In this document: positions 1 to 45,753 of the stretch, one piece after another | Numbering within the stretch: the stretch's first letter is position 1 | How the letters are laid out: each line of letters starts with the position of its first letter | Virus record (IMG/VR): IMGVR_UViG_3300045988_007086 | Span: 1-47,211 of that record | Direction: 5' to 3' (one strand) | DNA length: 47,211 nucleotides | Source of the DNA: a virus | The notes under the pieces: generated by a model | The model's database searches: none | Seen by the model: the letters and a program-made list of their open reading frames with translations, nothing else | Told to the model about the DNA's origin: nothing | Made by a program: the position numbers and the translations under genes

Positions 1-27
1 TGGGTTCGATTCCCGTACGGGTCACCA
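1..27 (+). other. tRNA 3'-end fragment (T-arm, acceptor 3' strand, discriminator A, CCA), the att core
   Basis: tGGG-TTCGATT-CCCGT-ACGGGTC-A-CCA gives a canonical T-loop, 5-bp T-stem 3' half, 7-nt acceptor strand and CCA. No D-arm or anticodon arm lies upstream in the second copy. Confidence 0.8.
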
Positions 28-38
28 AAAAGAGAAAT

Positions 39-72
39 CCCGCAATTCATTGAGATTGCGGGTTTTTCTTTA
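39..72 (+). terminator. Rho-independent terminator following the tRNA fragment
   Basis: CCCGCAAT / ATTGCGGG stem (39..46 and 55..62), 8-nt loop, then TTTTTCTTT. Confidence 0.7.
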
Positions 73-179
73 CATACCAACGCTTTCCGGGTTTTTGTGC
101 GTTGTAATATCTGACGCATTCTTGCATTGTCTGACGCATTCAGGATGCAATTTTCAACACAAAACGCTAACGAAAAATG

Positions 180-653
180 CTAACGTTTTTGCTTCACAAT
201 GCACCTGTAATACGCGCAAAGCTTTTCCTCCGGGCCGGGGCCGTCCTTGTCCATCAAGAACGCCCGCGCCAGTTCCGCGTAGAACTCCGGCACGTTGACT
301 CCGAATTTCCGCGCCACATCGTAGTAGTCCGAATACATCATGTTCATGGTCACACCCCACGCCCAGCGGGGGATGTCGTGCGGGATGCCGCTCGCATCCG
401 CGACGGCGGAAGTCTGATCCATCGTCCAGTGCGGGCCGGTCGTGCCGTCGGCATTCTGCATGCGCTCGGCCCACTGCATGGCCGTCTCTCGGTCAAACTC
501 TGCCGCTTCCGGCTGGTCTTCGCGGCAGTCCAGCTTTTCCAGCCTGCGGATCGTCTTTGCGTACAGGCCGACTTCCTCCGCGCTGCCCAGCGTCACAGGT
601 TTCTCCATGGCCTCGTGCAGCTTTGTGTAAAGCTTTTCGATATATTCTTTCAT
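180..653 (-). CDS. Hypothetical protein (157 aa), moron region
   Basis: Track ORF 180..791 trimmed to ATG 653, preceded by GGAGG (revcomp of 661..670). Upstream gene stops at 658. No family recognised. Confidence 0.75.
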   Translation of the reverse strand: MKEYIEKLYTKLHEAMEKPVTLGSAEEVGLYAKTIRRLEKLDCREDQPEAAEFDRETAMQWAERMQNADGTTGPHWTMDQTSAVADASGIPHDIPRWAWGVTMNMMYSDYYDVARKFGVNVPEFYAELARAFLMDKDGPGPEEKLCAYYRCIVKQKR

Positions 654-657
654 CTCG

Positions 658-996
658 TCACGCCTCCTGCATGTATCGGTAGAGTTTGTCCACGTCGTTC
701 TGATCAAAGCGCAGCTCGCCAATGATCGGCACCGTGACCGGCAGCTTCTGGCCGTCAAAACGCGGCCTTGCCGCATTATAGAGCCGGTCAAGGTCGATGT
801 TCCCGGCCTCGTCCATTACGCCCATCATCTTTACCGCCGGATTCTCGCGCAGCGCAAGGATCTTCTCGCGGCTGCCCTCCATGATGAGTGCCAGCATGAT
901 CCCGGCCCCGATGCCCTTGCCGCCCGGCAGGTGTGGAATGACCTCATTGTCCGCGTAGCGCATCGCGCCGCGCATGGCCTGATCTATCGTTACCAT
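658..996 (-). CDS. Hypothetical protein (112 aa)
   Basis: ATG 996 with GGAGG 7 nt upstream; tightly packed with 180..653. Confidence 0.75.
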   Translation of the reverse strand: MVTIDQAMRGAMRYADNEVIPHLPGGKGIGAGIMLALIMEGSREKILALRENPAVKMMGVMDEAGNIDLDRLYNAARPRFDGQKLPVTVPIIGELRFDQNDVDKLYRYMQEA

Positions 997-1045
997 AAGG
1001 ATACCTCCGTGTTAAGAGTGGGGCGGCGCTTGCCGCCCCTTTTGC

Positions 1046-1681
1046 TTAGCTGTTGCAGCACCCGCCGCACTTCTGGATCGGGTTGTAGAGCGTCTGCGCC
1101 GTGGTCGCGGTGCCCGTGGTGACGTCGGCGACCTGCTTCGGGTAAAAGGTCGCGTTGACGTAGGTGACGATGGAGTTGTCACCGCAGCAGCGGCGCTCGG
1201 CCTCCATCTTGATCGCATCAAGCGCTTCCTTGCGGACGGACTCGACGTCCTGCTTTACCAGCGTGAAACTGTCCTCAGTGCGCTGGTTGTGGACGGCCTG
1301 CTTGCACAGCGCCTCACGGACGTCCTTGAGCTGCCTGTCGATATAACCGTACACCTCCAGCATCTTGCCGTCGTTGTACGTGTTGGCCTTGAGCAGCGCG
1401 ATCTCGCTGTCCTTCGCGGCCAGCTTCTGCTCCCGGTCGAGATCGTAGCGCGTGACCGGCATGTTCTCGCTGCACGTCGGTTCCTGCTGCCGTGCGGCGA
1501 GCATGGCGGCGACCGTCATGGCAGGCGTAACTGCTGCAACGACGTCAGCGGCTGCCGGCTTGTTGTTCTGTCCGATGCCGCCCAGCAGATTGCCGAGCCC
1601 GCCGTTTGCCAGACTCATCGCAGCGCCGCCGATGCCAAAGCCCAGCGCAGTCCCCGCGAGTCCCTTGCTTGCGTACTCCAT
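1046..1681 (-). CDS. Hypothetical protein (211 aa) with glycine-zipper N-terminus, coiled-coil middle and Cys-rich C-terminus (CC...CGGCC)
   Basis: Track ORF 1046..1810 trimmed to ATG 1681 with GGAGG upstream. N-terminus is GLAGTALGFGIGGAAMSLANGGLGNLLGGIG. C-terminus is RRCCGDN...IQKCGGCCNS. Confidence 0.7.
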   Translation of the reverse strand: MEYASKGLAGTALGFGIGGAAMSLANGGLGNLLGGIGQNNKPAAADVVAAVTPAMTVAAMLAARQQEPTCSENMPVTRYDLDREQKLAAKDSEIALLKANTYNDGKMLEVYGYIDRQLKDVREALCKQAVHNQRTEDSFTLVKQDVESVRKEALDAIKMEAERRCCGDNSIVTYVNATFYPKQVADVTTGTATTAQTLYNPIQKCGGCCNS

Positions 1682-1791
1682 AGTAGTACCTCCGATAAAA
1701 TAGTAAGCTGGCCAGCTCCTATGCTCATTATGAGGCATCCACGAAGAACAAAAAACCAACTCTTCGGCCACTTTTCGGGCACAAAATGTAT

Positions 1792-1822
1792 AAAAAAACA
1801 GCCACTCCATACGGAGTGGCTG
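1792..1822 (-). terminator. Rho-independent terminator after the NYN gene
   Basis: Minus strand reads CAGCCACTCC-GTAT-GGAGTGGCTG (10-bp stem) followed by TTTTTTT. Confidence 0.85.
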
Positions 1823-1839
1823 CCTTCACATATGATAGT

Positions 1840-2547
1840 TTAATCCTGTTTTTCAATTGGCATGATCATCTTCTTATGTTCCCGCTTCTTCCAGCACGAC
1901 TTAAGCCCGTCAATGTGCTCGAACAAGTCCTTGGGAATGGTTGCCTCCATTGGATCAAGAATGAAGTCAATTCCCTCTCGTCTGGCCAGTTTTGCTGCTG
2001 GCACAAAGTCGCTGTCGCCTGCCAGTAAAATTATCTGATCTACTTGTTTTTTATACGCAAGTGACGCAATATCTAATCCGATGCGCATATCAACGCCTTT
2101 CTGGTTGAAGGAGATCGTAAAATCTGATTCCGTTAAATCCTCAACGCTTCGTTCCTTTCTGCACAGTGCCTTTGTAGCATCCGCCGAAAGTGCAAAGTGC
2201 GCGCCGGCATCAGACAGCCGACCCATTCGGAGTGCGACCTTGCGTTTCTTTTTCAATTCTTCAAAAAATGCATTTGCCCAACGATAAGTATCGGATTTTC
2301 CAAAGTCGATCCCGCACTTCAACGCAGGATGATAGACCGTCTTTTTCAGCGGCGGGCAATCGTAATAGAAGATACGATACAGTTCACGCTCTTCTCTGTG
2401 GTCACTATCCTTCCCTTCATCGCGAATGTGTGCCATGCAGTAGGCATACAATTCGTTTGCGCGGTCAATCGGGCTTTTATCACCCCGAAGGTAAAACGCC
2501 CGCTTTCTGTAAAACGCACCATCTACAAGAATTGCTGTCTTTTTCAT
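1840..2547 (-). CDS. NYN-domain (LabA/DUF88-like, PIN-fold) putative ribonuclease, 235 aa
   Basis: Three acidic NYN motifs are visible: AILVDGAFY, QKGVDMRIGLD and LLAGDSDFVPA...REG. ATG 2547 with AGGAG 7 nt upstream. Visibly more AT-rich than its neighbours. Confidence 0.8.
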   Translation of the reverse strand: MKKTAILVDGAFYRKRAFYLRGDKSPIDRANELYAYCMAHIRDEGKDSDHREERELYRIFYYDCPPLKKTVYHPALKCGIDFGKSDTYRWANAFFEELKKKRKVALRMGRLSDAGAHFALSADATKALCRKERSVEDLTESDFTISFNQKGVDMRIGLDIASLAYKKQVDQIILLAGDSDFVPAAKLARREGIDFILDPMEATIPKDLFEHIDGLKSCWKKREHKKMIMPIEKQD

Positions 2548-2677
2548 ATGTCAGCTCCTAAAAAAATGATGAAGCCCCCGGTTGCAGCATTCCCCGTATG
2601 AATGGGGTGCTTAATACCGGGGGCCTGTTAATGGCACAACGGACGTAGTAAACAAACATTACTTTCGTTGTGCTTAT

Positions 2678-2706
2678 ATATTATGACAGCAAAAATTCAT
2701 TGTCAA
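2678..2706 (-). promoter_or_regulatory. Sigma-70-type promoter for the NYN gene
   Basis: Minus strand reads TTGACA (2706..2701), 17-nt spacer, TAATAT (2683..2678). Confidence 0.6.
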
Positions 2707-2732
2707 CCCATTTAGTAAAATTTAATATTCAG

Positions 2733-2755
2733 GAGCCGCCCTATCCGGGCGGCTC
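2733..2755 (-). terminator. Hairpin/terminator at the end of the lysis operon
   Basis: GAGCCGCCC / GGGCGGCTC 9-bp stem overlapping the stop of 2741..2965. Followed on the minus strand by an A/U-rich tract, not a clean U-run. Confidence 0.5.
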
Positions 2756-2965
2756 TGTTGCATGTTCCCGCAGTACATTCACGCACCGCGCTATGATCTT
2801 CTTGACGCCGTTTACGCTCAGGCCCTCGCGCTCGGCAATGCGCTCATGGCTCCAATCGTCAAGAATCTTCCGTTTCAGGATTTCCCGGTATCGCTCCGAA
2901 AGAATCCATTCGTCGATCAAATGCTCCCAATCGCTGCGGCTCAGACTCGGCAGCCCCCGCAGCAT
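2741..2965 (-). CDS. Small sigma-70 region-4-like HTH protein (74 aa)
   Basis: The pattern DEWILSERYREILKRKILDDWSHERIAEREGLSVNGVKKIIARC resembles region-4 / LuxR-type HTH proteins. Start is coupled to the endolysin stop (AAGTAAGGAGGGCATG). Confidence 0.6.
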   Translation of the reverse strand: MLRGLPSLSRSDWEHLIDEWILSERYREILKRKILDDWSHERIAEREGLSVNGVKKIIARCVNVLREHATEPPG

Positions 2966-2974
2966 ACGCCCTCC

Positions 2975-3670
2975 TTACTTCGTGTCCAGCACGGCGATAT
3001 TGCCCTTATTGCTGACCCTCAGGCCCAGCGCGGCGGCGATATCGCGCACCTTTACATAGTTCGTGCCGTTTTTCAGGATACGTTCGACGGCGACCTCCTT
3101 GCCGTCCACGATCATTTTGCTTTTTTCTACCACTTCATCTTCAAACCTTTCCAAGAATTTTTTCCACTGCTCGTTGCCAGTGGTGTGATAGTAGGTGTTC
3201 ATGTCCGTGCCTACAAAAGGACGCGGGCAGTACTTCCCGGACACATCATAGTGCCGGATAATGTGATCAGCCGGAATGTTGTGCTCCTCCATGAGCTTGC
3301 AGATGAGCCACTCGGCATTGTCCAGCACCTTTTTCTCGAAGAACCAGTCTGTGTCGTAGGCTCCCATGCGCTTCGGATTGACCTTCTTCGGTCTCAGCTC
3401 TACGCCGATGGAGTTCCAGTTCCGGCACTCCGGATGCAGCGTACCGTCTCCGCAGTGCCACGCCACATCCGTGTCCTTGACGCACCGGTAAATGATATCG
3501 CCCTCGTCTACGGCGTAGTGCGCGCTGGCTCTGGCCTGCGGGTTTTTGAACCACTCGGCCACGCTGGCCGCAGAGCCGAGTGCGCCGAAGTAGTGGACGA
3601 CGATCCATTTCGGCGTGCATCCGCCCGCTCGATGGTTGATCGGCGTGAGTGCGTCCTTAATTACCGGCAT
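2975..3670 (-). CDS. Endolysin: N-acetylmuramoyl-L-alanine amidase (Amidase_2/PGRP) with a C-terminal wall-binding-like domain
   Basis: IVVHYFGA...SAHYAVDEGDIIYRCVKDTDVAWHCGDG...NSIGVEL is typical of Amidase_2. Trimmed to ATG 3670 with GGAGG 8 nt upstream. Sits after the holin genes. Confidence 0.9.
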   Translation of the reverse strand: MPVIKDALTPINHRAGGCTPKWIVVHYFGALGSAASVAEWFKNPQARASAHYAVDEGDIIYRCVKDTDVAWHCGDGTLHPECRNWNSIGVELRPKKVNPKRMGAYDTDWFFEKKVLDNAEWLICKLMEEHNIPADHIIRHYDVSGKYCPRPFVGTDMNTYYHTTGNEQWKKFLERFEDEVVEKSKMIVDGKEVAVERILKNGTNYVKVRDIAAALGLRVSNKGNIAVLDTK

Positions 3671-3872
3671 TGGTTGCGCCTCCATCCACTGCATCCTGCA
3701 CCTTCTGGCTCTGCGTGCCGAAGTAGAACGCGATGATTACCGCGTAGATTGTCATGAAGTCCTGCGAGATCTTCTCGGCCACCGCCATGTAGGCGAACAC
3801 GCCCGTCAGAACCAGCGTCACAAGGCTCTTCACGCTCAGGAGATTCCCGAGCCGCTTGATGATCTTATCCAT
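3657..3872 (-). CDS. Holin (71 aa, two predicted TM segments)
   Basis: Trimmed to ATG 3872 with GGAGG upstream. Hydrophobic stretches SLVTLVLTGVFAYMAV and FMTIYAVIIAFYFG. Overlaps the endolysin start. Confidence 0.75.
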   Translation of the reverse strand: MDKIIKRLGNLLSVKSLVTLVLTGVFAYMAVAEKISQDFMTIYAVIIAFYFGTQSQKVQDAVDGGATNAGN

Positions 3873-4125
3873 CGTATGTACCTCCATCGTCTTTATCATT
3901 TGGTTTTGCAAATACTCTCTTGAGCAGGAGCAAAATCAGCTCCCCGCCGAAGGCCGCGCCCGCGAATACCAGCACATCCGAAAGGTCGCACGTCCTATCC
4001 AGCAGGACGGCGGCGGTTTTCAGGATCATCGCCCATGTGGCCACTGCCGTGAGCATCCACAGGCAGTAGTATACAAGCTCGCGGGCCATACGGCCCTTTG
4101 TCCATCGTTTCTTGTCTCTGCGCAT
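3865..4125 (-). CDS. Small membrane protein of the lysis cassette (86 aa, holin-like)
   Basis: Two hydrophobic helices. ATGA overlap with the upstream gene at 4125. Confidence 0.6.
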   Translation of the reverse strand: MRRDKKRWTKGRMARELVYYCLWMLTAVATWAMILKTAAVLLDRTCDLSDVLVFAGAAFGGELILLLLKRVFAKPNDKDDGGTYDG

Positions 4126-4517
4126 CAGCCCAGCCCCAGCTTCGCCAGCGCAAATCCAATCAGCCCTGCAAGGATCGCCGTGATAACTCCCTTTACGACC
4201 GCCTCCCAGCGGCTTCCCGGCAGCGCCTTGATGCTTTTCACATCGGCCTTGATCTCGTTCACGTTTTCCTCGATCGCCTCCTGCTTGGTCGCCAGCACCT
4301 CCACCGAGGTCGCCAGCTGATGCAGCGCCCTGTTGTCTGCCTCCAGCTCATCGATCCTGTGCGAGTTGCTCTTGCATCGCGCCTCCACGGAGGCGATCTG
4401 CGCCTGAATTCCATCATCCATCTTGATACTCCTTTCAAAGCTTTCTATTTCGCACTCCGGGCAAACCATCCTGCCCTCCGGCACGGCCCGTCCGCAGCAT
4501 ACGCAAGTATCCATCAC
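4125..4517 (-). CDS. XhlA-like lysis-associated protein with an N-terminal zinc ribbon (130 aa; alternative internal start at 4421 gives 98 aa)
   Basis: Coiled coil plus C-terminal TM (VVKGVITAILAGLIGFALAKLG), as in XhlA. N-terminus carries CVCCG...CPEC. Both ATG 4517 (GGAG upstream, ATGA-coupled) and ATG 4421 (AGGAG upstream) have an RBS. Confidence 0.6.
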   Translation of the reverse strand: MMDTCVCCGRAVPEGRMVCPECEIESFERSIKMDDGIQAQIASVEARCKSNSHRIDELEADNRALHQLATSVEVLATKQEAIEENVNEIKADVKSIKALPGSRWEAVVKGVITAILAGLIGFALAKLGLG

Positions 4518-6445
4518 CTGATCTCCTCATTGATCGTCGCAATTACCGCCGACGCATCCGTGCAGATCAGACTTACGCGGATGTAGTGCTCACCGGGTGC
4601 TGTTACCGTGACGATGTCTCCATTGCTGGCGAAATTGAGACTATTCCATGCATGTCCGTTGTATATGTAGCTTGTAGATACCAACGTTGCCGTTGCGCTG
4701 TACTCTGCTGCTGCACTTTTCCCATCATTCGCAGCGGGGAGACTCACACCCTTTATGCGAAGCGTATCGCCAGCCGAAAGGTGAATAAGGCTTGTTGCGT
4801 CCATATTTGCGCCGATTGTCGCCCATCCTACCTGCGCTTTGTTCGTGCCGCTCGATGTGCTCAGCCGCGTATCCGCAGATATGCCGACAGTATTGATGAT
4901 GTTTGTGATCTCTGCTGCACAGGTAATCACAATGTCGCCCAATACTTTTGGAATTGTGATCGTGCTGCCGGATACCACCGAAGCGGAAATGTCAACCCCG
5001 CGCATTGTGACAGTGATCGTGCCAAGCTTTTTGTATGTTCCCGTAGGCGTGAGCGTCGTAGTGTAGGCTGTGCCCTCGGCAATGCTGTCAGCCGTGTTGG
5101 AAGATGCACAGTTGGTGAGATTTAGCTTGATGTCGTAAGTCACAGACGGTGCAGAGGCCGCCGCAGTGATCGTGACTGCTCCCGTCACCTTTGCGATGTT
5201 GATTGCCCCACTACCTGCTGAATAAGCTGTAGATGTAATGTCCACGCCGCCCATTTTGATTACTACCGATGTGATTGTCTTTCCGCTTTCCGGCGTGATA
5301 GTCGCGGTGTACGCCTCGCCGTAATCCACCTGAGATGCACCGTTGCTGATCGTGCATCCTGTGAGATTTTTGGTGATGCTCTGATACCAGTGCAGCGTCT
5401 CTGGCGTTCCGTTGGTCATAGCCGCGCGGTAAGCGTTGATATCAGCCAGCGATATTCCGCATGTGCCAACCGCGAAGTGAACGCATTTGTCACGGAAGCT
5501 GTCACCGGAAACGGCCTTAATGGCATTGATAAGTCCAATCCACTCTGGTTCATTTCTCCGCCGCGCGAGGGCGTCCGTTCCCGAACCGGAATAAAATGTA
5601 GTCAACTCGTAGTCCTTGTCGATATTGCTCTGACTCATACCGAGCAGCCCTTCAAGCACACAAGCCAGCGTGCCGGTTCTGTCCGCGCCTGCCGTGCAAT
5701 GGAAATACACCGGCTCCCGGTGTGTCACCGCGTCAATCACGCACCGGAGGTAGAGCTGCCACGTTGCAACCGGCACCAGTGCGTAAGACGCTGCCTTGTC
5801 GGCAATCGTAAACCACACATCGCTGCCAAGCGGGGATTCCGTTGCAACATCGCCATCGGACGGATCGCGTCCCTCTTTGCCTCTGAGATCGATTTCATGC
5901 TGCACGCCGAGCTGGCCGACCAATACCGCCCGATCTGCGGCAGAGATACGCCCGCCTCGAATCAGCAGCCCGTATTTCACGGTGCCGCCGTCGCAGGCCC
6001 AGCCTCCCAGATCGCGCACATTCCACGCTTCTGCGGAGTTGTTGCGCGTGCGAATCCAGCGTAGCGCATCCAGCGGCTTGAGCGTCCCCGCAGCATTGTT
6101 CCCGGCAAATGGCGTGAGGACATTCGGCACTTCGTTGTAGTGCGTCACCCCGCCCGCCTCCTGCCCGATTGGCTTGTAGTTGCCCACAACTGCCGTCGCA
6201 GGCGCATAATTTGCAATCTGCGACGTGCTGTAATCAGCGGGATCGTATGTGACGTTTGCGAGGTAGTTTCGAACCAGCTCCGGGCATTGATGCCATTCTA
6301 AGGCTTCCACAGCGCCGGTCTCGATTGCCTGAATGGCAGACACAAACCCGGACGGGTACACCAGCTGCGCATCCGTGCCTCCCTTCGCTCGGATTGCGTC
6401 GGCGACAGCCGTCAGATCTGCCGTGTTTGTCAGGTATTCCGCCAT
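4514..6445 (-). CDS. Tail fibre / receptor-binding protein (643 aa) with an embedded tyrosine-phosphatase-like domain, two Ig-like repeats and a C-terminal domain
   Basis: Trimmed to ATG 6445 (ATGA overlap with the collagen fibre gene). Carries WNVRDLGG, then HCTAGADRTG (5672..5701), the CX5R P-loop. Two roughly 80-aa repeats at 4910..5389. It is the last structural gene before lysis. Confidence 0.8.
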   Translation of the reverse strand: MAEYLTNTADLTAVADAIRAKGGTDAQLVYPSGFVSAIQAIETGAVEALEWHQCPELVRNYLANVTYDPADYSTSQIANYAPATAVVGNYKPIGQEAGGVTHYNEVPNVLTPFAGNNAAGTLKPLDALRWIRTRNNSAEAWNVRDLGGWACDGGTVKYGLLIRGGRISAADRAVLVGQLGVQHEIDLRGKEGRDPSDGDVATESPLGSDVWFTIADKAASYALVPVATWQLYLRCVIDAVTHREPVYFHCTAGADRTGTLACVLEGLLGMSQSNIDKDYELTTFYSGSGTDALARRRNEPEWIGLINAIKAVSGDSFRDKCVHFAVGTCGISLADINAYRAAMTNGTPETLHWYQSITKNLTGCTISNGASQVDYGEAYTATITPESGKTITSVVIKMGGVDITSTAYSAGSGAINIAKVTGAVTITAAASAPSVTYDIKLNLTNCASSNTADSIAEGTAYTTTLTPTGTYKKLGTITVTMRGVDISASVVSGSTITIPKVLGDIVITCAAEITNIINTVGISADTRLSTSSGTNKAQVGWATIGANMDATSLIHLSAGDTLRIKGVSLPAANDGKSAAAEYSATATLVSTSYIYNGHAWNSLNFASNGDIVTVTAPGEHYIRVSLICTDASAVIATINEEIR

Positions 6446-7494
6446 CAGAAGCTCCCTCCATTCGCGTTTGCGATCTCTACAGCTGCCCATGCTCCATCCA
6501 CAACGCGCAGGAATTTCCCGTTATCAGCGGATGTAACAGATGGAACACCTTTTGGAATTTCCACGGTTTTCGCCGCGCTTCCGTCGTAGCTCGTTGTCGT
6601 ATCGCCGATCTTGATGTTGAGCGAATAAGGATTTTTGAGTTCCGTCGGAATCGTGGGGATATCGGACTCTTTCGCCAGCGTTCCGGCCCATGCCATCCAA
6701 GCGAACCCGTTGAATGCCACAACTAGATACATCGGTTTTTGCGTCGGATCGTTTGATCCAAGCGCTCCAAATCCAAGCACCACCAACCCGGAAACGCTTG
6801 CCGTGAGCGCAAGTGGAAGTGTGAATGGTCTGTCAGCATCGCTGAACTTTGCAATCGCATACACCGCATACCCTGCCGCATAGGCCGCATACACCTCCTC
6901 AGCCGTTTTGTCTGCGGTTGCGTTGTTGCCGTTTCCTTGCGTCACCGTCACATAAAACGCGCTCTTCGCTGCGCCAGTCGCGCCATTCACGCTTTTAACC
7001 GGCACATCATCCGCGCCGATGGGCGTGAACCCGAGCGCACCGACAACCGCATCCTTCGTGACATTCGCATTGTCCCCGTTTGCGCCCTTCGGAATTCCGA
7101 GGTTAAGCGTAGGCTGTGCGGCTGTTCCGCCCATGCTTGCCGTAGCCTCGCTTCCTGCGGGCAGCGTCGTCACCGTCCCTATCTTGATATCCGGCGTCAC
7201 GCCATCCTTACCGGGTGCTCCATCCTTGCCGGGTGCTCCATCCTCACCGGGTACTCCATCCTTGCCGGGGCTTCCGTCTTTGCCGGGAGCTCCGTCCGGG
7301 CCTGCGGGGCCTGTCGCACCCCTCGACGGCTTCCCGGTGTCCTCGTCTCCGAGATACCAGTTCCCGTTTGCTCCGATCGTCGGCGTAATGCCGTCCTTGC
7401 CGTCCTGCCCGGTGCCGCCGCCTCCGCCCGCCGGAATCTCATAGGTATCCGGAAGCCCCGGAAATGTAACTGATTTTAATGGTTTTTTCACCAA
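6445..7494 (-). CDS. Collagen-like (GXY repeat) tail fibre protein, 349 aa
   Basis: Contains GATGPAGPDGAPGKDGSPGKDGVPGEDGAPGKDGAPGKDG. TTG 7494 (or GTG 7491) after GGGAGGTG. Confidence 0.85.
   Translation of the reverse strand: MVKKPLKSVTFPGLPDTYEIPAGGGGGTGQDGKDGITPTIGANGNWYLGDEDTGKPSRGATGPAGPDGAPGKDGSPGKDGVPGEDGAPGKDGAPGKDGVTPDIKIGTVTTLPAGSEATASMGGTAAQPTLNLGIPKGANGDNANVTKDAVVGALGFTPIGADDVPVKSVNGATGAAKSAFYVTVTQGNGNNATADKTAEEVYAAYAAGYAVYAIAKFSDADRPFTLPLALTASVSGLVVLGFGALGSNDPTQKPMYLVVAFNGFAWMAWAGTLAKESDIPTIPTELKNPYSLNIKIGDTTTSYDGSAAKTVEIPKGVPSVTSADNGKFLRVVDGAWAAVEIANANGGSF
7195..7330. repeat. Tandem 9/18-bp repeats encoding the GXY triplets
   Basis: ccatccttgccgggtgct-type units are repeated. 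Confidence 0.8.
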
Positions 7495-8868: not shown

Positions 8869-9225
8869 TTATTCCACACGCGCAATGTTCCCGCTCGCAA
8901 GCGTGGTACGGTTGCCGTGCGTGTATAAAATGTCGTACCGGTAGATTCCGCGCGGGAACTTGGCCGTCACCTCGTCCGTGAACGCCAGCGTTACCGTGTT
9001 CTCGTCCGCTCCGGTGAAGGAGAATTCCTGCACGGCCTTCTTTGTCCAGTCGTAGAATGTGACCTTGATCTTGTCCGTCTGCCCGATGGCCACGTCCGCG
9101 CCGTCCTGGTCCTCCAGCTCCAGCCGGAGCCGGAGGGAGAACGTATCTCCCTCATACCAGCAAATGCACCCGTTCGCAATGCGCGGGCTGACCCGCGCGC
9201 CGGGGATCGTGTTTGCCGCACTCAT
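8869..9225 (-). CDS. Hypothetical virion protein (118 aa)
   Basis: Trimmed to ATG 9225, which forms an ATGA overlap with the stop of the giant gene. Confidence 0.7.
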   Translation of the reverse strand: MSAANTIPGARVSPRIANGCICWYEGDTFSLRLRLELEDQDGADVAIGQTDKIKVTFYDWTKKAVQEFSFTGADENTVTLAFTDEVTAKFPRGIYRYDILYTHGNRTTLASGNIARVE

Positions 9226-12200
9226 TTCTTGTCTCCTTTCCTTTTGTTGGCCTCCCGCCGCCACTTGATGATGTTGTCCCGCGCCTTATCCGCATCGCCT
9301 CCGATAGCCTTGTACGCGCTGATGTAGGCATTCTTGAGCCGTGTCGCCTCGTCGCCGGTCGCCGCCAGCCACGCTTCCTTGAAGTGTTTTGTGAGCTGAG
9401 AGGACAGGTCGCCCTTGTCCACACCGTGCTTCATATACTCCTTGGCAACCTTCCGCGTATCGGCCAGCACGCCCTTGTCCACTGCGTCGAGGAACTGTCC
9501 GTACTTCTTCCAGCCCTCGCCGCCCTTCCACTCTTCGAGCGTCCAGTAAACGTCGTGTTCATCCTCCGCCCCGCAGTACTTTTGCAGATAGTCGGATACC
9601 TCGCTCTCTGGCATGGAGCCGCCCAAATAGTCCTCCTTGAGCTGACTTTTCAGGTCACTCTTCACGGCCTTTTCCGCATCCTCCTGCGCCTTTCCGTCCG
9701 CCACCTTCGCGCTGACGGCGTTCTGGTAAAAAGCATCCCATGTATCGCCGCCCGCTTTCAGCGCCTCCCTGTACCCGCTCCAAGGTTCAAATCCCGTTGC
9801 TGAGTAGTTTGCCGCCAGCAATGCCGACTTCTGACTCCCGGTCAACTCCATGCCGTCGAGGATACCCATCGCTTCGTCGCGCTTACTTCCGGAAATCGTC
9901 TTTCCGTCCGCGTCCTTCTCGCCCTCCACGTTCGCAGCCATCACTGAGTAGGCAATGCTTGCCGATTCCGGAACGCCGTTGTCGGCGAGTTTCTTAAACT
10001 TCTCAACATATGCGTCCGCTTCATAATCGTCGAACAGTACGCCCTTTGCCTGTTCCGCCGCATAGTCGTAGAGCTTCGCAAGCATTTTCGCCTGCTGATC
10101 GTCGCCCGCGCTCTGGAATGCATCAGACTGCACAAGTTCATTGAGGCTGTTTCTGACTGCCTCGCTCCACACCATGTCATATGTCTGCTTCTGATATGCC
10201 TTAAGCTCACGCTTTTCGTCGTGGATATTGACGGAGGACGGCGTGTCCGCCGGGGCCGCGTTCGCGTATCCTGCCTCGTACAGTCTTGCCACTGCCTGCA
10301 CGGCTTCGCTGCTCACATCTACATCCCGCACCTGAAACACGTGCTGCACACGCATCCGCAGCGCGTCTCCCGTCAGCCCTTTCAGCAGATTCCTGTTCGC
10401 CGTCTGCATTGCATCGTCATACGCCGTTCCAAGCGCAGGGGATACCGTCTTGACCGTCCCGAGAATATACGTCTCCAGATTGTTTGCCGGAAGCGAAAAC
10501 CCATATGTGGCGATCTCCTTTGCCAGATTCCGGATGTCTCCGAGCATATCGTTCCCGTACCGTTTCAGGTAAAGTGTCAAATCTCCCTTGTTCTTAATCA
10601 GGTCTGCTCCGTCCGTCACGAACTTGTTGATGTTTTTCCCGTGCGTGTCTATCAGCTCCAGCACTTTGTTGAGCTGCTCCACGCTCTGCGAGTTGAAAAT
10701 GTCATAGAATCGCTCTCCCGACAATGTGCCGCCGATCAGTTCCACGACCTCTTCTCCGCCAATCGACGCGGCTCCCGCGATGCTGGAAAGCAGATCCTCT
10801 CCCATGCCTTTCAGTACGCTCAGCGCCGTCAGGTTCCCGTCGTCGTCTCTGTATTTCTTGTCTCTGTGCTTCAATAGCGCCATGAGGAACGTTACCGCCG
10901 TAGACCATATATAGCCGCCCGCTGCGGAAACGAACGCCTGCCCGACGCGGCGGTTTGCGCGGCGCTGCACTTCGATGGATGCTCCGCTGCGCTTGTAGTA
11001 CTGCGCCTCTCCGATCGCCTGACGTACCGTGTTGTATACCTGCGCCGAGTCCGAACGGAACATGGTGACTGCTTTCGCCAGCGCATTCTTGCTCTTGCGC
11101 AGCCTGCCTTGGTGCATTTCATCGGATGTAGACTGGCTTCGCGCCACAGCGTCGTTGAAGCGCTCTGCGACCTTCTGATAAAACGGGCTTTGCCCTGCGT
11201 CGATCTGTTCCTGCGTCCCGATTTCCAGCTCCGGGTTTTCTCTTCGCACGGCGTTTTCTGCCCACGGCCACAGCGTGCTTGCTGCCCATCCGTCCATGGC
11301 TGTGATCGCGCCGCCTCCGAACGCAAAGTTCAACACTTTGTTGTTCTGAATCTTTGTCGGATGATCCTTGAGCTGCTTTGTCTCCGGCGTCGCGTAGCCC
11401 ATGAGCCGGTAATCGAGCATCTTGGTATACTTTGAGATCAGCGTTCTGTCGATCTGTGCGATTTGCTTCGGGCTTGGCGTGTTCTCCGCGCCGAGATAAG
11501 CCGCTGCCAGGGGAATGGAGCCTGCCTGCTTGAACACGATAGACGGATTGAATCCGAACGTCGCCGCAATGTAGTTGCTGAATATCTTGTCTGCGGCAGT
11601 CGTTACAAAGTCCTGTTCACTGCTTCCGCCCGCCTCCAGCTTTGTAAGCTGATCCATGATGTATTTTTCTGTTACCTCGCCCCATTTCCCGTCGATCACG
11701 GTTTTCATGGATGTCGTGCTTCCGCGCCAGTTGAGCAGTGTTTTCCAGTTCCGCGCCGGGATCGCCATTCCTACGAAGCGTGACGTCTGGCTGACGTTCC
11801 GCTCGAAAGCGTCGTAAGCGCCGATGTTGTATGTCGGATTCTTGGACACCTGCCGCGTCTTGAGGTTTCCGACGCCCTCTGCCGTCGCGTCATAGATTCC
11901 CGGCTCACTCTTCGTGAAGCTGCTGTTCGTGAAGATCGGCGCATAGTTTTTCCCCATGGCCTTGTCGTATCCATACAGAATGTTAGATACACGGTTGATC
12001 TCGCTCTTTGCGTATCCGTTGTAATACCTGTCCAGCACGTCCGCCAGCGCCTTTTCCTCAACGGTCAGGTCGGAAACGATCGCCTTTACCGTCTCCGGCG
12101 CAAGCTTGACCGTAGTCCCTTGCGCGAACGCCTCCTGCCGCTTTCCCTTGCTGTAAAGCTCCCGGTTTGCGAATGTGCGGCCGCCCGCCATGTGGCGGAG

Positions 12201-15200
12201 ATTATCGTAGTTCCTGCTTTCCAGATACATGTGTACCTTCTGTGCTGGTGTCATGTATACCGTGACGGTTTTCCCGAAGATCGGTTTGTCTCCCATGCCC
12301 AGCTCCAGCAGCTCCGGCACCTTGATCTCGTACCAGATCGCATCCTTGCCCTGTCCATCCGACCGCATGACCCATTCCCGGTTTTTCTGCATGAAGTCCT
12401 TCAAGATCTGTGCCGCCGTGACCTGATACGACTGCGCATCGCGTTCGCCCTTCTCCAGCTGCTTCGCCATGCCGTACCATGTGCTGTTGGGATTCCACCC
12501 CGCCATGCGTTCCAGCACGTTCATGGTGCTCAGCTGCTCCATGTTCATAAATCGATCTGTCAGTTTTCCCGTGTATCCGCCCGCTGCGCTGTTGATCTCC
12601 CGCACCGAATCTGCATAAACGTCCTCGAATATGCGCTCTTCCGCGTCCCCAAGCACCCGGTTCCGGTTCGCAAACTCTGTCCGCAGCTCTACCGCCGCCT
12701 GATACAGCTTTCCCAGCGCGTCCAGATCCATGTCCCCGATCTTTCTCGCGTCCAGTCTCGTTACGATGCGCTCAAGCTCCTTTGACGGTAGGAAGTTCGG
12801 GTCGTTTGCTTTCGCATCCTGGTACATCTGCGCCAAATCCCGCCACGTCGCGTTGTACTTTCCAGACCACTGCATTTCGTTTGCAGTGCCGACGGCGTAA
12901 AGATCAATATCACTCAGCACCTCGTCGAACTGCTCACGCAGCTCCTCCGGCGCACGGAAGCGATTCTTGTTGAGCCATTGCAGTGTCTTGAGCGTCTTCT
13001 TCTGAAGCTCCTGAAGCTCCCTTCGCGCCTTCTGCCGCGCGGCCATATCCTTTCGGTCTTGCCGTTCCAGCGCCCTGCGGTTTGCCTCTCTGGCCTTCTC
13101 GCGCTGTATCCTCTCGTCGATCCGCGCCTCCATCGCGTCAATAAGCTTTCCCTTGCTCTTGGCGAGTGCGGCATCCTTCTTCTGCAGCCGTTCATCCGTG
13201 CGGGCCTCCATCGCTTCAATGAGCTTCTGCCTGCTTCTGTCCGTCGCTGCGTCTTTCTTCTGTAGCCGTTCATCCGTGCGGGCCTCCATGGCCTCGATCA
13301 CGCCCGCATTGTTCTGCGATCTCTGCGCATTGCGTTGTGCCGATCTGTCCCGTTCTGCCTCAATGGCCGCCGTCTTGTCGCCCCGAAGCTTCACCTCAAG
13401 CTTTGCCTTTTCGGCGAAAGTCCGCATCGCCCAGTCCAGCTGCCGCTCCATGTTTTCAAGGATCGCATCGTCCGATACAAAATCCTTTCCGGCCAGCGCC
13501 TGCGCGTACTCAGACAGGCTCAGATTCTGATCCTGCGCTTCCTCCGCTGCCTGCACGATCTGCTCCAGCTTTTGCCTCTGGCTCCCGCCGGTCTCGCTGA
13601 ACGTGTCAGGTGCCGCCTCAGACAGTGCCTGTGTCCACGCTTCGGCGCTCCGGTCTGCGGTGCTGTCTGTGAGATAGATCCCGGCCTCGAACGCTCGTTT
13701 GCGGAAGTCGTTCCATTCGCTTCCGAATTCCCGCCTCGCGCGTTCGCTGACATAGAGCCGCCCATCTCCCACGATATCCGGCACAGCGTCCGGCTGCTGC
13801 CGCAGGCTCTCCATCATCGCCCCGGAGGAATAAAGCCTGGCGAGGAACACATCGCGGTCTGTCTGCGTCAGCTCTCCGTTTGTGTAAATGCGGTCTGCAA
13901 AATAATCGATCACGCGTCCAACATCCGTCCGCTGTGTTTTCGATACGGAGAACATTTTGAACAGCGTGCTTTTCAGCTCCCGCTGTGCAATGGTCGGTAG
14001 ATTGACCCGTTCCGACCGCCTCTTGTCCTCCTGACCGTCAGCCGCCTCTGTAACCGAAAATTTTTCTTGACTTTTCTGCTCTGTTCTGCGTATACTGGGT
14101 TCAGAGACGGATGCAGTGTTTCTGTTGGTTCCCGGTGACGGGTTCTCAGCTTTCGCTGCATCGGTCTCTTTTTCTGTGAAAGAGGTTGGCTGCAGATTTA
14201 GAATGTCGTACAGCAACATGCTTCCGCTTTCCCGTGTGCCTACTACCACTTCCGCCGTGTAGCCGTTTCCACCCACGCGCAGCAGCACATTGCCTCTCGC
14301 AAAGTCTGCGATTTTGTCCTTGCGTGGATGGTTCAGCCCTTCGTTCACCCAGTCCGTTGTTGCGCGCAGGATTTCGTCTGCATTGTCCGTGGCGCGCAGT
14401 TTGTCCGCCCGCAGCTGCGGGTCGTTGTTGTAGAGCCACTGCATATACCGCGAGAATGTCATCTCCTGACGGCTCTGATAGTCAATATTGATCTCGTTGT
14501 TCCCCACAGTGATGCCGTTGGGGAACTTTTTCTTCAGGTTCTCCTTGATGGTCTTCACCCAGTCCGCTTCCGGCACGCCCGCGAGGATGTCCTGTTCCAC
14601 CTCCACGAACGGCTTGTTGTCCGTGGTCTTTCCGATGCTATACTTCTCCGGCGGGCCTCGTGTCCCGCCGGTTTTTTCCGCCGTCTGAGCTGTCGTTCGC
14701 AGCTCTGCCGCCTCCCGGACGGTCTGCTGATACTGCTCCGCGTGGGTGCCGAATGCGTTGATTCCCGCATAAGCGTCCGCATAGATCTCTTCCTTGATGG
14801 CATTCAGCGCTTCGTCGAATTCCGCGTCCGTCCCCTCTGTCGGCACGTCATTGACACCGCGCCGGGAACGAATGTATGTCTCGACGATTTGGTCAAATTC
14901 TTCCTCGCTGAACGTATCCCGAATGTGCTGTTCGATCTGCGCATTCAGTCCCGGCGTGTTGTCTGCGATCCAGTGGTATGTCTCATGAGATGCCAGTTGG
15001 TCAATAGTCGCCCGAAGGTTGTCCGCCTGAACGATGATCCTGTCTCCGGTGAACACCGCCGCTGCGCGCGCTGTGCCGCCGTTTGACGTTCTGACCTGCA
15101 AAGGCCCGAGCACATATGTCGTCTCAAGTCCTGTCCGTTGCTTGACTCTCGCCGCAGTCTCTTTCATGCCTGCATCCCAATTTTCCCGCATAAAAACCGT

Positions 15201-18200
15201 GTTGCCGCGATAGCCCGTCCCACGGCTCACCCCAAGCTCGACGGTGCTTACTTTCGGGAGCCGAAGATCTCTTGCACGATTCTGTCTTTCAACTGCTGTT
15301 CTGCTTTGCTGAGCGGCCGCGTTTGTTTTTCCTGTCCTGCCTGCCACTGCTCCAAACGGCTTTCCGGCACGTCGATCAGACTCCCGTCTCGATCCTCCAT
15401 CAGGTACGACGTTTTCTTGCTGCTCTTCAAGTCTTACCGCTCCTTTCTTGTTTGTCTCCTGCACCGGTGCTTCTTCCTGTGTCGCGGTCTGTTCGGCCTG
15501 CTTTGGCCCCGGAAGCGTCGTCTCCCGTGCCAGCTCTTCTGTCTCCTGAACCGCCTGACTTGCCGCCTGTGCAGGTGCCGGCTTCGGTGCTTCTGCTTCC
15601 TGCGTGATCTGCTGTTGCTCCGCTCTTGAAGGCTTCTGCATTTGCTGCGTTTCTGTGCCGCCCGGGATCAGCTCCAGCGCCGCTTGGATCGCTTCCAGCG
15701 TTGCGTCTCGCGTGTATCCGCTCAGCTCCGTGCTTGCCTTTGCCTGCGCCGCTTCGAATATCTCCCGTGTTTCCTGTGTCAGGATGCGCGCTTCTTCCTC
15801 GTTCTCTACAGTCAGTGTACTCAAGTACGAGTTTATAAACCGACTGTTTAGCCAGTTCATCATATAAGCAATGTCCACCGCAGTCCCACTGTTGATCCCG
15901 TATCTGTCTGTATAGTCCCGCTCTATCTGCTTTGTTCTTTTTGCAAACTGCTCGTTTGCGTTGCTCCAGCTTCCAAATATCTCGTCTCTTCGTTCCGGCT
16001 CCAGTGAAAACACTCTGTCTTTTTTTGCTTGCGCCTGCTCGTATTTTGTGAGCTGTGGTTCCTTGTTGAAGTCGATTTCCCGCGTCTCTGCTCGCCGTCC
16101 GGCGTCTGCTTGCGTTCTCTTCCCGGTCTGCGTCTGTACATTCTGTACTTCCTGCACGGCCTGTGTGGTCTGCGCCGGTGTCTGCTGCTGCCTTTCCGCT
16201 TCCTGAACGGCCTGTGCGGGTGCTTGCTGGCGGGCCTCTCTTGCCGCCTGCCGCGCATCCCGCTCATCCGCATACTGGTTGTACGTCTGAAAAGCCGCCT
16301 CGGCCTGCGCGGCCTGATCGGCTTTGACCGCCGAATTCACAACTGCCTGCACCTCTGCCGTCTCCGGCATCTGACCGGCCTTTACCTTGTCCATGACCGC
16401 CTGCGCAGCCTCTGCGGTCGCCTGATCCCCGCGCTCCTTTGCCATCGACTCCACTGCGTCCATGACCTGTCCGATCACGTTCAGCTGTTTGCCCCTGTTG
16501 CGTGCCTCCACGGCCTTGTTCGTTCCTGCGTATGCTCCGGACATGGCAAGACCGGAAATGCCGCCCGCGAGGAACGAAAGCCCGTCCTCTTTCAGCATGT
16601 CTCCCAGCGTCAGCGCAAGCGCCTTTTCCTTTGTATTGCCCTTTGAAAGATACTCCGCATACGCGCCCATGACCTCGCCCCGGTCGTGCTTTGCCACAAC
16701 GTCGTAGATTCGGTTGAGCCAGTTGGAGGCGATCTCTTCCGCGCCCTCGGACGCGAACGCCCGCATCACTTTCTTCCACACCTGCTTTCCGCTGAGCATG
16801 GTCTTGATCTTGTCGCCCACAGAGTATTTCTCCGTTAAGCCCTCGATTGCGCCCTCAACAATGCCGTCAATAAGCGCCTCCTGATTGGATTTGCCGCTCT
16901 GAATTCCCGCATACACGGAATCCGCCGCGACCTGCGACCCCATCACCCAGTTCATCGTCTCTGCCACCGCCGAGGACGCCGCTTCTCCGCTGAGTCCCGT
17001 CGTTCCGACGATTGCGGTCGATGCGGCCATGTTGACCGCGCTGTCCAGCGCGGATGTTCCTGCCTGATACAAAAACTGTCCGACCGGCCCCATGCCCTCC
17101 ATGACGCCGCTGCGGATGCCGCTCGACTCGTGCGTTGCGAAATACAGTGGGCTGTAGATGTTTGTCGGCATGTCCTCGTTCTGGTATCCGCCGAGCCACT
17201 TCGGCAGAATGCCGCGAAGCGATTCGATGTTTCCGAGTGCCTTGAACGGGGCGAGCAGGGAAGAAGCGACGGTCGATGTGACCGGCGCGTCTTGGCCGAA
17301 CTTCCGCGCGCTTTGCGACCGCTTCTGGTAATCCTCGAAGTCCTCCAGATACTTTTCGTATTCTGCCAGCCGTTTGATCTGATCGTATGAGTATCCCTTC
17401 TGCCGAAGCTTCCATTCTGCTCCTTCGTTGTCTGCCAGGTATCCGGTCTTGTTGTATTCCCGCAGAAGCTCCCGTGTCTCCTCATCCAGCGCGCCGATCG
17501 TGTTCTCCGCCTGCCCCAGTGCGCGTGCGGAATCCAGCGCCGCTTTTCTGGTCTCCAGCGTGTCGATCTCGCTCTGTATGTCCCTGACCCCTCGAGCCTG
17601 CCTGCGCGTCCCGTTCTCATCGGTGTACCAAGCCGTCCCGTTCTCGTCAAACTGATAGTCTCGGAAATGCTCGTCGGATTTCTGCTCATATAGCTGATCC
17701 AGTTGCTTCTGTATCTCTGCCGAAGTCCGCTTCATGCCGCGCAGCTGATCCGGAAGGACCGTCTCCCTGTATCGCTTTTCCTGCTCCGCAGCCCGTCTTT
17801 CCAGCTCCCCGTCGAACTGATTCAGACCGATCAGGCGGCTATAGTCCTGCCCGGCATTCGTCGCCGCCTGCTGGGCCGCCGTTCCGGTCTGCACCTTGCG
17901 CTGAAACTGTAGATACTTCTGAATATCCTGTGCCGCCTGTACGCGCGGCTGCATATCCCCGTCGAGCTGATTCAGGCCGAGCATGCGGCTGTAGTCCCGC
18001 TTCTGGCTTCCGCCCGCCTGCTGGGCAGCCGTGCCGACGGATACCCTGCGTGGGAATTCCGTCTGCTTCTGGTACTCCGCGACATACTGCTTGTACTGCT
18101 GATACGCTGCCTCATAGCTCTGCGGCGTCGCTTTCTTGGTGTTCGTCCGGTAATCCGGATTATACGGGCCGTTCGTGACGTTCTGCCTGCCGCCGCTTGC

Positions 18201-39889: not shown

Positions 39890-39950
39890 CTTCCCACCCC
39901 CTTCCAATCGACATTTCTTTTCTCGGTTACGTCCTCTGTAACTTGGTTTC

Positions 39951-39979
39951 ATGCTATCACATCTCTGATTCATTGTCAA
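39951..39979 (-). promoter_or_regulatory. Minus-strand promoter (candidate early lytic promoter)
   Basis: Minus strand reads TTGACA (39979..39974), 17 nt, TGA-TAGCAT (-10 at 39956..39951, extended TG). Confidence 0.55.
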
Positions 39980-40011
39980 GCACTTTTGTGAATCCCAGTT
40001 TCATTATTTTC

Positions 40012-40040
40012 TTGACAATGCATTTTTTCTGTGGTAACTT
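40012..40040 (+). promoter_or_regulatory. Promoter of the CI-like repressor gene
   Basis: TTGACA (40012..40017), 17 nt, TAACTT (40035..40040). Its -35 lies in CTTGACAATG, the exact inverted repeat of CATTGTCAAG at 39971..39980. Confidence 0.5.
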
Positions 40041-40062
40041 AGTTTCAGAAAGGAGGTCGCAC

Positions 40063-40437
40063 ATGAATAGCATCAACCAGCGGATCGATTTTCTGATAAA
40101 GGAACTAGGTATTACAAAAACGAAATTTTCCGAAGCGATCCATGTTTCTTCTCAATTCGTCTCCGCTATTTGTTCTGGCTCAAAGGTGCCGAGCGACCGC
40201 ACGATTGCAGACATCTGCCGCGAGTTCAACGTATCTCTTGCATGGCTGGAGACCGGGGAAGGGGAGATGTACGTCCAGCGCAGTGAGAACGAGCGCATGG
40301 CCCTGATGTTTGCCGACGTTCTGGCCGAGGCCGACGAATCCACCCGCAAGCGCTGCATCGCTGCGGCAATGGAGATGCCCCCTGAGTTCTGGGACAGCAT
40401 CTACGAGTACGCGAAAAAAATCACCGGAAGCGCATGA
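40063..40437 (+). CDS. XRE-family HTH repressor (CI-like), 124 aa
   Basis: Trimmed to ATG 40063 after AAGGAGG. HTH reads ITKTKFSEAIHVSSQFVSAICSGSKVPSDRTIADICREFNVSLAWL. Confidence 0.75.
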   Translation: MNSINQRIDFLIKELGITKTKFSEAIHVSSQFVSAICSGSKVPSDRTIADICREFNVSLAWLETGEGEMYVQRSENERMALMFADVLAEADESTRKRCIAAAMEMPPEFWDSIYEYAKKITGSA

Positions 40438-42779: not shown

Positions 42780-42806
42780 TGGGTTCGATTCCCGTACGGG
42801 TCACCA
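42780..42806 (+). other. tRNA 3'-end fragment (attP core) 45 nt downstream of the integrase stop
   Basis: Same 27 nt as 1..27. Preceded by non-tRNA sequence (..ttcatttctt), so it is a fragment and not a gene. Confidence 0.8.
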
Positions 42807-42817
42807 AAAAGAGAAAT

Positions 42818-42851
42818 CCCGCAATTCATTGAGATTGCGGGTTTTTCTTTA
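42818..42851 (+). terminator. Second copy of the tRNA-type terminator
   Basis: Identical to 39..72. Confidence 0.7.
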
Positions 42852-42958
42852 CATACCAACGCTTTCCGGGTTTTTGTGCGTTGTAATATCTGACGCATTC
42901 TTGCATTGTCTGACGCATTCAGGATGCAATTTTCAACACAAAACGCTAACGAAAAATG

Positions 42959-43432: not shown

Positions 43433-43436
43433 CTCG

Positions 43437-43775: not shown

Positions 43776-43824
43776 AAGGATACCTCCGTGTTAAGAGTGG
43801 GGCGGCGCTTGCCGCCCCTTTTGC

Positions 43825-45744: not shown

Positions 45745-45753
45745 ACGCCCTCC

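Follow-up and report, generated by a model that had tools for sequence, protein, structure and literature searches.

A 47,211-nucleotide (nt) stretch of viral DNA (IMG/VR record IMGVR_UViG_3300045988_007086, positions 1 to 47,211), analyzed over its full length and referred to here as the window, carries a short AT-rich unit built around a gene for a NYN/LabA-like putative endoribonuclease (hereafter NYN). Judging from the sequence, the element hosting this unit is a temperate phage. Positions 1..4432 are identical to 42780..47211 (0 mismatches), which shows the window to be a circular genome of 42,779 bp that wraps past its starting point. All features of the first 4.4 kb are doubled by this exact 4,432-bp overlap, and the NYN unit is seen twice because of the wrapping, at 1792..2706 and, with an offset of 42779, at 44571..45485, on the minus strand. 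In the direction of transcription, also on the minus strand, the unit comprises a sigma-70-type promoter (TTGACA-17-TAATAT, 2706..2678), a stem-loop at the 5' terminus of the transcript (2634..2673; -13.5 kcal/mol, z = -3.4), a hairpin of the TEG147 class (2572..2626), a U-run (2560..2566), an AGGAG ribosome-binding site (RBS, 2555..2559) that follows the U-run directly and lies 7 nt before the ATG, the NYN open reading frame (ORF) of 235 amino acids (1840..2547) and an intrinsic terminator (1792..1822) with a stem of about 15 bp followed by U7 (-26.6 kcal/mol, z = -6.6). The promoter, the leader between promoter and NYN ORF (about 124 nt here, about 120 nt as first estimated), and the RBS had all been proposed in an original prediction made from the sequence, and all are present. 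The same prediction regarded the gene as standing alone, with no obvious partner or antitoxin, and this view is not supported: the leader is a conserved structured RNA that is near-universal with the NYN family. We consider it highly probable that the unit is a two-part mobile cassette made of this RNA and the NYN gene.

The leader hairpin was recognized by Rfam, by a covariance model (R1) built from NYN leaders only, by covariation and by its predicted fold. The Rfam family RF03535 (TEG147) matched 2568..2629 on the minus strand with 39.0 bits (E about 2e-6 to 4e-5), a score that is below the gathering score of 56.1 and outside the described scope of the family, yet clearly non-random, and the cmscan alignment extended over model positions 1-60 with all stems formed. 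With the same secondary structure and conserved loop sequences, the leader RNA is, on this comparison, homologous to TEG147. The hairpin of the window has an 11-bp outer stem, an internal loop, a C-rich apical stem and a loop containing AUA; its internal loop is AUUA/GCA, compared with a sarcin-ricin-like AGUA/GAA in the family. We aligned 42 distinct hairpins from NYN leaders (alignment A1). In the consensus, an outer stem of 9 bp is followed by an internal loop (AGUA in the 5' strand, GAA in the 3' strand), then by a short G-C helix and finally by a C-rich apical stem, whose loop contains AUA. Compensatory changes were observed in 15 of 15 pairs and 90.9% of cells were paired, a result reached by none of 500 column shuffles, while sliding the partner by 1-3 columns reduced pairing to 21-62%. 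This covariation indicates that the leader hairpin is under structural selection. The AGUA/GAA-type internal loop of the TEG147 Rfam family was independently flagged as a sarcin-ricin motif (PMC13085918).

Model R1 matched the window at 69.8 bits (E = 6e-16) over 2561..2633, with its second appearance at 45340..45412. Among the viral loci examined, the match lay directly upstream of NYN and on the same strand in 84 of 85, and only one other match below E = 0.01 was obtained in 624 kb. The model likewise matched almost every homologue at a greater distance (about 44-80% identity to the protein of phage phiE202). A promoter, then a hairpin and U-run before the RBS, was found in Dorea DO134P1, Streptococcus Javan85, Burkholderia phiE202, Moraxella Mcat4 and E. 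coli ev099, and the same layout was seen in the 80 viral contigs examined, save two that end at the contig edge. Comparative analysis thus indicates a conserved RNA-NYN pair across temperate phages of Firmicutes and Proteobacteria. As for the promoter, it is the best sigma-70-like match of the first 8 kb (10/12), where the number of such sites (7) is by itself not above the shuffle expectation (4.7 +/- 2.2). It is credible because it is conserved across homologous loci: a promoter with a match of at least 10/12 was present within 150 nt upstream in 45 of 67 non-identical loci, compared with 5.7% of control windows. A hairpin at the predicted transcript start, a standard feature of RNA stabilization, was found in 30 of 32 loci (z < -2 in 19), with sequences unrelated between loci. 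At the other end of the leader, only 2-33 nt separate the hairpin model from the start codon, which places the RBS right against the hairpin throughout the family. Of 66 family hairpins, 55 have 5 or more U among the 8 nt that follow the stem. The clade of the window, to which the AUUA/GCA loop also belongs, has 4 U there and a U-run displaced 5 nt from the stem, therefore termination is probably leaky in the window copy.

Several other readings of the leader were considered and rejected. A 33-codon ORF (2564..2665, minus strand), with its ATG at 2665, runs through the hairpin to a stop in the U-run; its ATG is absent in two close relatives (L010 and L011), and this candidate leader peptide is probably spurious. 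A guide RNA, with a variable segment and a scaffold as in single-guide RNAs, was dismissed on the grounds that the variable 5' segment is self-paired and only a few nt long in the staphylococcal and streptococcal copies. Mimicry of the 5S rRNA loop E or of the 23S sarcin-ricin loop, a remote idea prompted by the AGUA/GAA loop, found no Rfam rRNA match at E <= 5, and the apical part differs. The Rfam matches to ceN48, mir-245, IS128 and DUF3800-I were at chance level, the last of these falling on the terminator region (1789..1856, 24.9 bits).

The NYN homologues of enterobacterial lambdoid and Stx2a phages form a single clade without an R1 match. Their leader contains a different hairpin (CCCCGTTCGCAGACAATTGTTAATATCTGCATAACGG) followed by a U-run, which we named class B to distinguish it from the TEG147-type class A and which is equally conserved. 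Class B showed compensatory changes of AGCCCAG/CTGGGCT to AGCCCGG/CCGGGCT, GGCTTGG/CCAAGCC or AGCCTAG/CTAGGC, and a further one of GCAGA/TCTGC to GTAGA/TCTAC. In loci L100-L134 it precedes the NYN start by about 70-80 nt, and in L005 it lies at about 3920..3990. The class B NYN protein is longer (285 amino acids) and its gene is located between cI and N, as in the lambdoid phage ev099 and, by homology, in Stx2a phages; in lambda, this interval is occupied by rexAB. Among 5426 complete E. coli genomes, 275 matched the E. coli version of NYN, and in 74 of these, including Shiga toxin-producing strains, the match covers at least 80% of the query.

To scan sequence collections from the RNA side, two sub-family patterns were chosen because low-information RNA patterns are too unspecific. 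The class-A pattern gave 41 matches in viral contigs, with a NYN start less than 150 nt downstream in 37; one of the other four is on a contig that ends too soon and three are orphans. The TEG147-type pattern was found in the genomes of seven species, always as a complete hairpin and with NYN downstream in six of the seven. Staphylococcal and streptococcal copies lie upstream of NYN genes, and R1 scored these TEG147-type loci at 45-63 bits. The representative genome of Staphylococcus aureus had no exact match to the pattern, and the sister species S. schweitzeri, which belongs to the S. aureus complex, did (L090, 1263..1333; 51.2 bits with R1). In S. schweitzeri the hairpin is intact and NYN is cut down to a 5' remnant of about 45 nt (KVAILIYGEF, then a stop), while in S. 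intermedius (L086) the NYN gene downstream of the hairpin is frameshifted. In S. aureus, TEG147 has been described as a 60-nt "bona fide" small RNA (sRNA) of unusually high GC content that is expressed from a genomic island (PMC5826253, PMC3053349), and RF03535 is typed "Cis-reg" in Rfam. Extrapolating from S. schweitzeri, we regard TEG147 as the probable leader of a NYN module that has decayed and left this RNA as an orphan. Hairpins without NYN in S. schweitzeri and in loci L188, L241 and L244 mean that the RNA can persist or act alone. Locus L188 has two hairpins (2924..2995 and 3936..4007), of which the divergent one precedes NYN and the other, a canonical class-A hairpin with U-run and RBS, stands directly before an integrase ORF; the second hairpin may be a relic of cassette exchange or may control other genes. 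A terminator-like hairpin with an AGUA/GAA loop was also noted in L054 (2525..2588), after a DUF3800-like ORF (1825..2526).

These observations bear on an alternative in which the hairpin is a cis-acting attenuator or terminator and mRNA-stability element that is read by a host factor and holds NYN at a low constitutive level, and NYN is an RNA-processing moron of benefit to the lysogen or the phage and unrelated to exclusion. The resemblance of 55 of the 66 hairpins to intrinsic terminators, their location between promoter and RBS, the orphan hairpins that persist without NYN and the similar AGUA/GAA-type terminator after the unrelated DUF3800-like ORF in L054 are all compatible with such a role. 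However, internal and apical loops that stay invariant from phylum to phylum, and an almost exclusive link to a single protein family, are more than a generic terminator requires, and the enterobacterial protein clade comes with an RNA class of its own. We thus consider this alternative unlikely. Since the conserved internal and apical loops exceed what a terminator needs, a specific ligand is argued for, and NYN is the sole constant companion of the RNA. Direct recognition of the hairpin by the NYN protein, through which the RNA would gate the enzyme, stands at about an even chance in our assessment.

The protein itself contains the three acidic motifs on which the gene was first recognized (VDGAFY, QKGVDMRIGLD and AGDSDF). 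Pfam NYN (PF01936) matched amino acids 135-197 only, at 39.7 bits (cutoff 24.2, E = 9e-10), and PHROG family phrog_5783, of unknown function, matched the full length (E = 5.5e-89). The protein was far below the cutoff of NCBIfam TIGR00288, and a sequence search of the PDB found nothing. The AlphaFold2 model (pLDDT 83.4) had as its sole PDB matches at E <= 1e-3 two NYN structures, 2qip (VPA0982; 2e-6) and 5yaa_C (MARF1; 9e-4), with target-normalized TM-scores of 0.57-0.66, and in BFVD viral NYN/LabA models ranked second and third behind an unnamed top match. Modeling therefore assigns to the protein a PIN-like three-layer NYN fold. Two aspartates, D9 and D159, do not vary in any of 55 homologues (31-56% identity), three more (D153, D178 and D180) are at least 90% conserved in this set, and among close homologues all five are invariant. 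Pfam, the predicted fold and the active-site aspartates thus agree on a NYN-fold nuclease with conserved acidic residues, as had been proposed. The pattern of conservation indicates an enzyme under purifying selection, and metal-dependent ribonuclease activity is predicted from fold and catalytic motifs, the acidic residues being the putative metal ligands. The fold and acidic catalytic motifs are shared with the other NYN/LabA nucleases of PF01936 (VPA0982, MARF1), from which the present family differs by an extra beta/alpha insertion of about 70 residues (about amino acids 64-130), by invariant residues of its own (Y62, D63, P66, R107, G109 and D213 in the 55 homologues) and by having its own PHROG. 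It is a large family, with 2024 clusters (50% identity) at E <= 1e-3 and 204 at E <= 1e-30.

In PADLOC-DB v2, no full-length match of the NYN protein to any system component was found, and AbiQ did not match it at all. Partial matches, spanning about 45 residues at the catalytic motifs, were obtained with PDLC01154 "NYN" (1.7e-5) and HEC-09 (8.7e-4), and three distant family members likewise had partial matches only. Our literature search found no paper joining NYN proteins with TEG147, type III toxin-antitoxin (TA) systems or prophage defense. The suspicion that such a gene is not an established phage-defense family was therefore well founded, as the protein falls outside all PADLOC-modeled systems and no paper linking the family to defense was found. 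We also looked for protein partners. Three ORFs separate NYN from the integrase end (1046..1810, 658..996 and 180..791); they yielded no candidate in Pfam, PHROG and PADLOC, the only match being DUF7841, and a conserved partner was rejected in a neighborhood survey (1203 neighboring ORFs clustered from 126 non-redundant loci), where only repressor, ImmA and recombinase families recur, at variable distances. Together with the intact nuclease motifs, the missing protein partner would suit a stand-alone defense effector kept safe by substrate specificity alone. This reading seems improbable to us because it takes no account of the structured leader RNA, which is conserved alongside the gene in nearly every locus examined.

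The NYN unit is clearly cargo in the phage that carries it. Its GC content is 45.5% (46.3% for the NYN gene) compared with 57.5% for the genome, which had been put at roughly 60%, and no 915-nt window of the genome has a lower GC content, although one at the lysogeny switch near 39.8 kb equals it. The higher AT content claimed for the unit was thus borne out. Comparison with sibling phages and the GC profile delimited a cargo cassette of about 930 nt (1832..2761, minus strand; about 45-46% GC), inserted at the 3' end of a small sigma70-region-4 (sigma-r4) gene and upstream of a backbone terminator, with a short CAT repeat as boundary. The strong terminator at 1792..1822 used by the cassette is therefore real, as had been proposed (with the z-score and U7 given above), but it is not part of the moron: it belongs to the phage backbone because it is present in siblings with an empty slot. 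A hairpin (GAGCCGCCCGGATAGGGCGGCTC) at 2741..2764 (minus strand) overlaps the end of the sigma-r4 gene and is also found in L264 at about 5938..5960. It is common to the NYN cassette and to an alternative cargo and absent from empty-slot siblings, and may be a shared cassette boundary or recombination site.

We surveyed the slot in 42 sibling phages having near-identical endolysins and enough downstream sequence. The NYN cassette was present in five of them, and in two (L290 and L309) nothing lies between the sigma-r4 gene and the backbone terminator. With its own promoter, deviant GC content and presence or absence among syntenic siblings, the unit is moron cargo, in agreement with the original prediction. 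Most other siblings have a different AT-rich cargo of about 1.05 kb with three ORFs and one weak DUF2283 match. This cargo, located at 5952..6996 in L264 and found in many siblings, codes for proteins of 87, 120 and 89-94 amino acids, the last one giving the weak match, and may be a small toxin-antitoxin-like set. In L272 and L297, the slot holds ToxN/AbiQ (PF13958 at 3e-44; PADLOC AbiQ at 3e-44). An exchange was also seen in another prophage slot: in L244 (2218..3200, minus strand), and in the same way in L242, an orphan class-A RNA has kept its promoter and 5' stem-loop, and downstream of it lie an entire ToxIN system (promoter, three 36-nt repeats, terminator and ToxN at E = 1e-49) and then the integrase. 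Judged by this arrangement, the NYN ORF was apparently replaced by ToxIN in L244. The L272/L297 and L244 cases indicate that NYN with its RNA and ToxIN have been exchanged in two different prophage slots. ToxIN and AbiQ are abortive-infection (Abi) cargo, and two independent swaps with ToxIN strengthen the positional case for a defense role of the NYN module.

Genomic context of the homologues led in the same direction as had been anticipated, since the neighborhood survey placed them overwhelmingly in prophage lysogeny modules, beside repressor and integrase. A helix-turn-helix (HTH) repressor was found upstream of NYN on the same strand in 73 of the 126 loci, and a tyrosine integrase adjoined NYN in 50, in 32 of which it was immediately downstream on the same strand. 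Serine recombinases were near NYN in 12 loci, and ImmA-type peptidases also recurred. Integrated gut prophages show, in order, a repressor, ImmA, variable genes, NYN, the integrase and an attachment site beside smpB. NYN also stands between repressor and int in Streptococcus phage Javan85, and in the P2-like phiE202 it is beside the integrase and a toxin-antitoxin pair. Lambda RexAB and BTP1 BstA are prophage exclusion genes next to the repressor. NYN takes the same place in lambdoid phages (ev099, where it separates cI from N, and by homology Stx2a phages), although RexAB and BstA are unrelated to NYN as proteins and no RNA partner is known for either. Based on these positions, phage exclusion or abortive infection is a reasonable candidate for the function of the module, with a probability that we would set somewhat short of even.

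The same neighborhoods could also reflect a role in lysogeny control or maintenance, either as an addiction module that stabilizes the prophage by post-segregational killing or as an RNase tuning int, cI or lytic transcripts, for which RNase III/sib retroregulation of lambda int offers an analogy. The integrase adjacent in 50 loci, the repressor upstream in 73 and the second hairpin of L188 directly before an integrase ORF would fit such a role. However, the phage of the window carries the module at the other prophage end, after the lysis genes, and most of its otherwise near-identical siblings do without it, indicating that the module is dispensable for the life cycle. Furthermore, the slot alternates with ToxN/AbiQ, a known abortive-infection cargo, and control of lysogeny therefore appears to us quite unlikely. 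Fainter still is the prospect of a counter-defense or host-takeover RNase that would, for example, degrade host defense RNAs or host mRNA in the lytic cycle. It would account for a phage-encoded RNase adjoining the late and lysis region in the window, but not for a sigma-70 promoter of its own instead of late control, for the location of most homologues in the lysogeny module with the orientation of repressor and int, or for a slot shared with TA/Abi cargo.

Among known systems, the NYN module would work most like a type III TA/Abi system (ToxIN, AbiQ-antiQ, CptIN, TenpIN), with RNA binding, processing and toxicity being attributed to it by analogy. Both have the order promoter, small structured RNA, terminator-like hairpin and RNase gene, both have no protein antitoxin, and both are on mobile elements and occupy identical prophage slots. 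The type III layout of an RNA and an RNase gene under one promoter with a terminator between them is also found here, with a weaker U-tail in the window. In contrast, the fold is NYN/PIN-like instead of that of ToxN/AbiQ, and there is a single hairpin where type III systems have tandem 34-36-nt repeats. Because both the tandem-repeat RNA and the ToxN fold fail, the module was not filed as a type III TA system. Recognition of a hairpin in its own mRNA is a property of Regnase-1/ZC3H12A and of E. coli RNase III and RNase E. The NYN module resembles these self-regulating RNases in concept only, in that its own mRNA carries a conserved stem-loop at a site where binding or cleavage could restrict synthesis of the enzyme; unlike the leader element of NYN, that of Regnase-1 is in the 3' untranslated region.

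We propose that the sigma-70 promoter would drive a short transcript that starts with a protective 5' stem-loop and then folds the 55-nt TEG147-class hairpin against the U-run and RBS of the NYN gene. In the lysogen, most transcripts would end at, or be held by, this hairpin, and little NYN would be made. The NYN protein would recognize the leader hairpin, which could serve as a translational or attenuation operator in a negative feedback (attenuation at the U-run, with bound RNA occluding the RBS) or as a stable decoy or antitoxin RNA in the manner of ToxI and ToxN. Either option would keep the RNase harmless. A superinfecting phage that disturbs transcription or RNA turnover would shift the balance between RNA and enzyme, and freed NYN would cleave phage and/or host RNA, so that the invader is excluded or the infection aborted. 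As a whole, a two-part cassette in which the RNA gates the NYN RNase and which probably serves as prophage exclusion or abortive-infection cargo has, in our judgment, even prospects of being correct.

Several points weigh against this proposal. The orphan RNAs of S. schweitzeri, L188, L241 and L244 occur without NYN; the PADLOC matches to the NYN and HEC-09 models are weak and partial; the co-location in hot spots is circumstantial, such slots also carrying non-defense morons; the window hairpin has an AUUA/GCA loop and a displaced U-run, and attenuation may be weak there; and the leader has no tandem RNA repeats, unlike described type III antitoxins. For the last point, TRF found none in 1700..2800 and detected the ToxI-like array of L244 as a positive control.

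The finding is real, and its candidate RNA partner adds interest beyond the earlier description. A lysogen must somehow tolerate a PIN-like RNase with a constitutive promoter, and a dedicated RNA partner would explain this in a way that can be tested. The orphan Rfam and S. aureus sRNA TEG147 gains a genomic context and a likely origin, and phrog_5783, a large uncharacterized phage family, becomes a candidate RNA-gated nuclease system. More tentatively, and with the odds against it, there could be a new and widespread class of RNA-protein TA/Abi systems in which a single TEG147-class hairpin gates or neutralizes NYN, interchangeable with ToxIN/AbiQ in hot spots and with the S. aureus TEG147 as a relic. 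This candidate class would range over phages of gut Firmicutes, Burkholderia, Moraxella and Stx2a-converting E. coli phages. Should the RNA prove to be an antitoxin, a new nuclease fold and an RNA without repeats would join the type III TA/Abi systems. Siblings whose slot is empty or holds NYN or ToxIN form a natural series that, together with the E. coli lambdoid versions, makes the idea directly testable.

The remaining genes of the window place the unit as described originally, between a lysis gene and the integrase end, with the sigma-r4 gene and the three ORFs mentioned above intervening. The lysis genes code for an amidase endolysin (2975..3694, minus strand) and a holin-like protein (3657..3911, minus strand), and the sigma-r4 gene (2741..2965) is between the endolysin and the NYN module. 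On the plus strand, a cI-like HTH protein is encoded at 39943..40437 and the tyrosine integrase at 41694..42734. The structural region contains a single ORF of 3,042 amino acids (9222..18350, minus strand), which is unusually long for a 42.8-kb phage. Finally, a 658-amino-acid protein of the late region (4514..6490, minus strand) has a domain of the tyrosine-phosphatase family (PF13350, E = 7e-24) and a sub-threshold Ig-like (Big_12) match, and this phosphatase domain is odd at a place where a tail-fiber-like gene would be expected.

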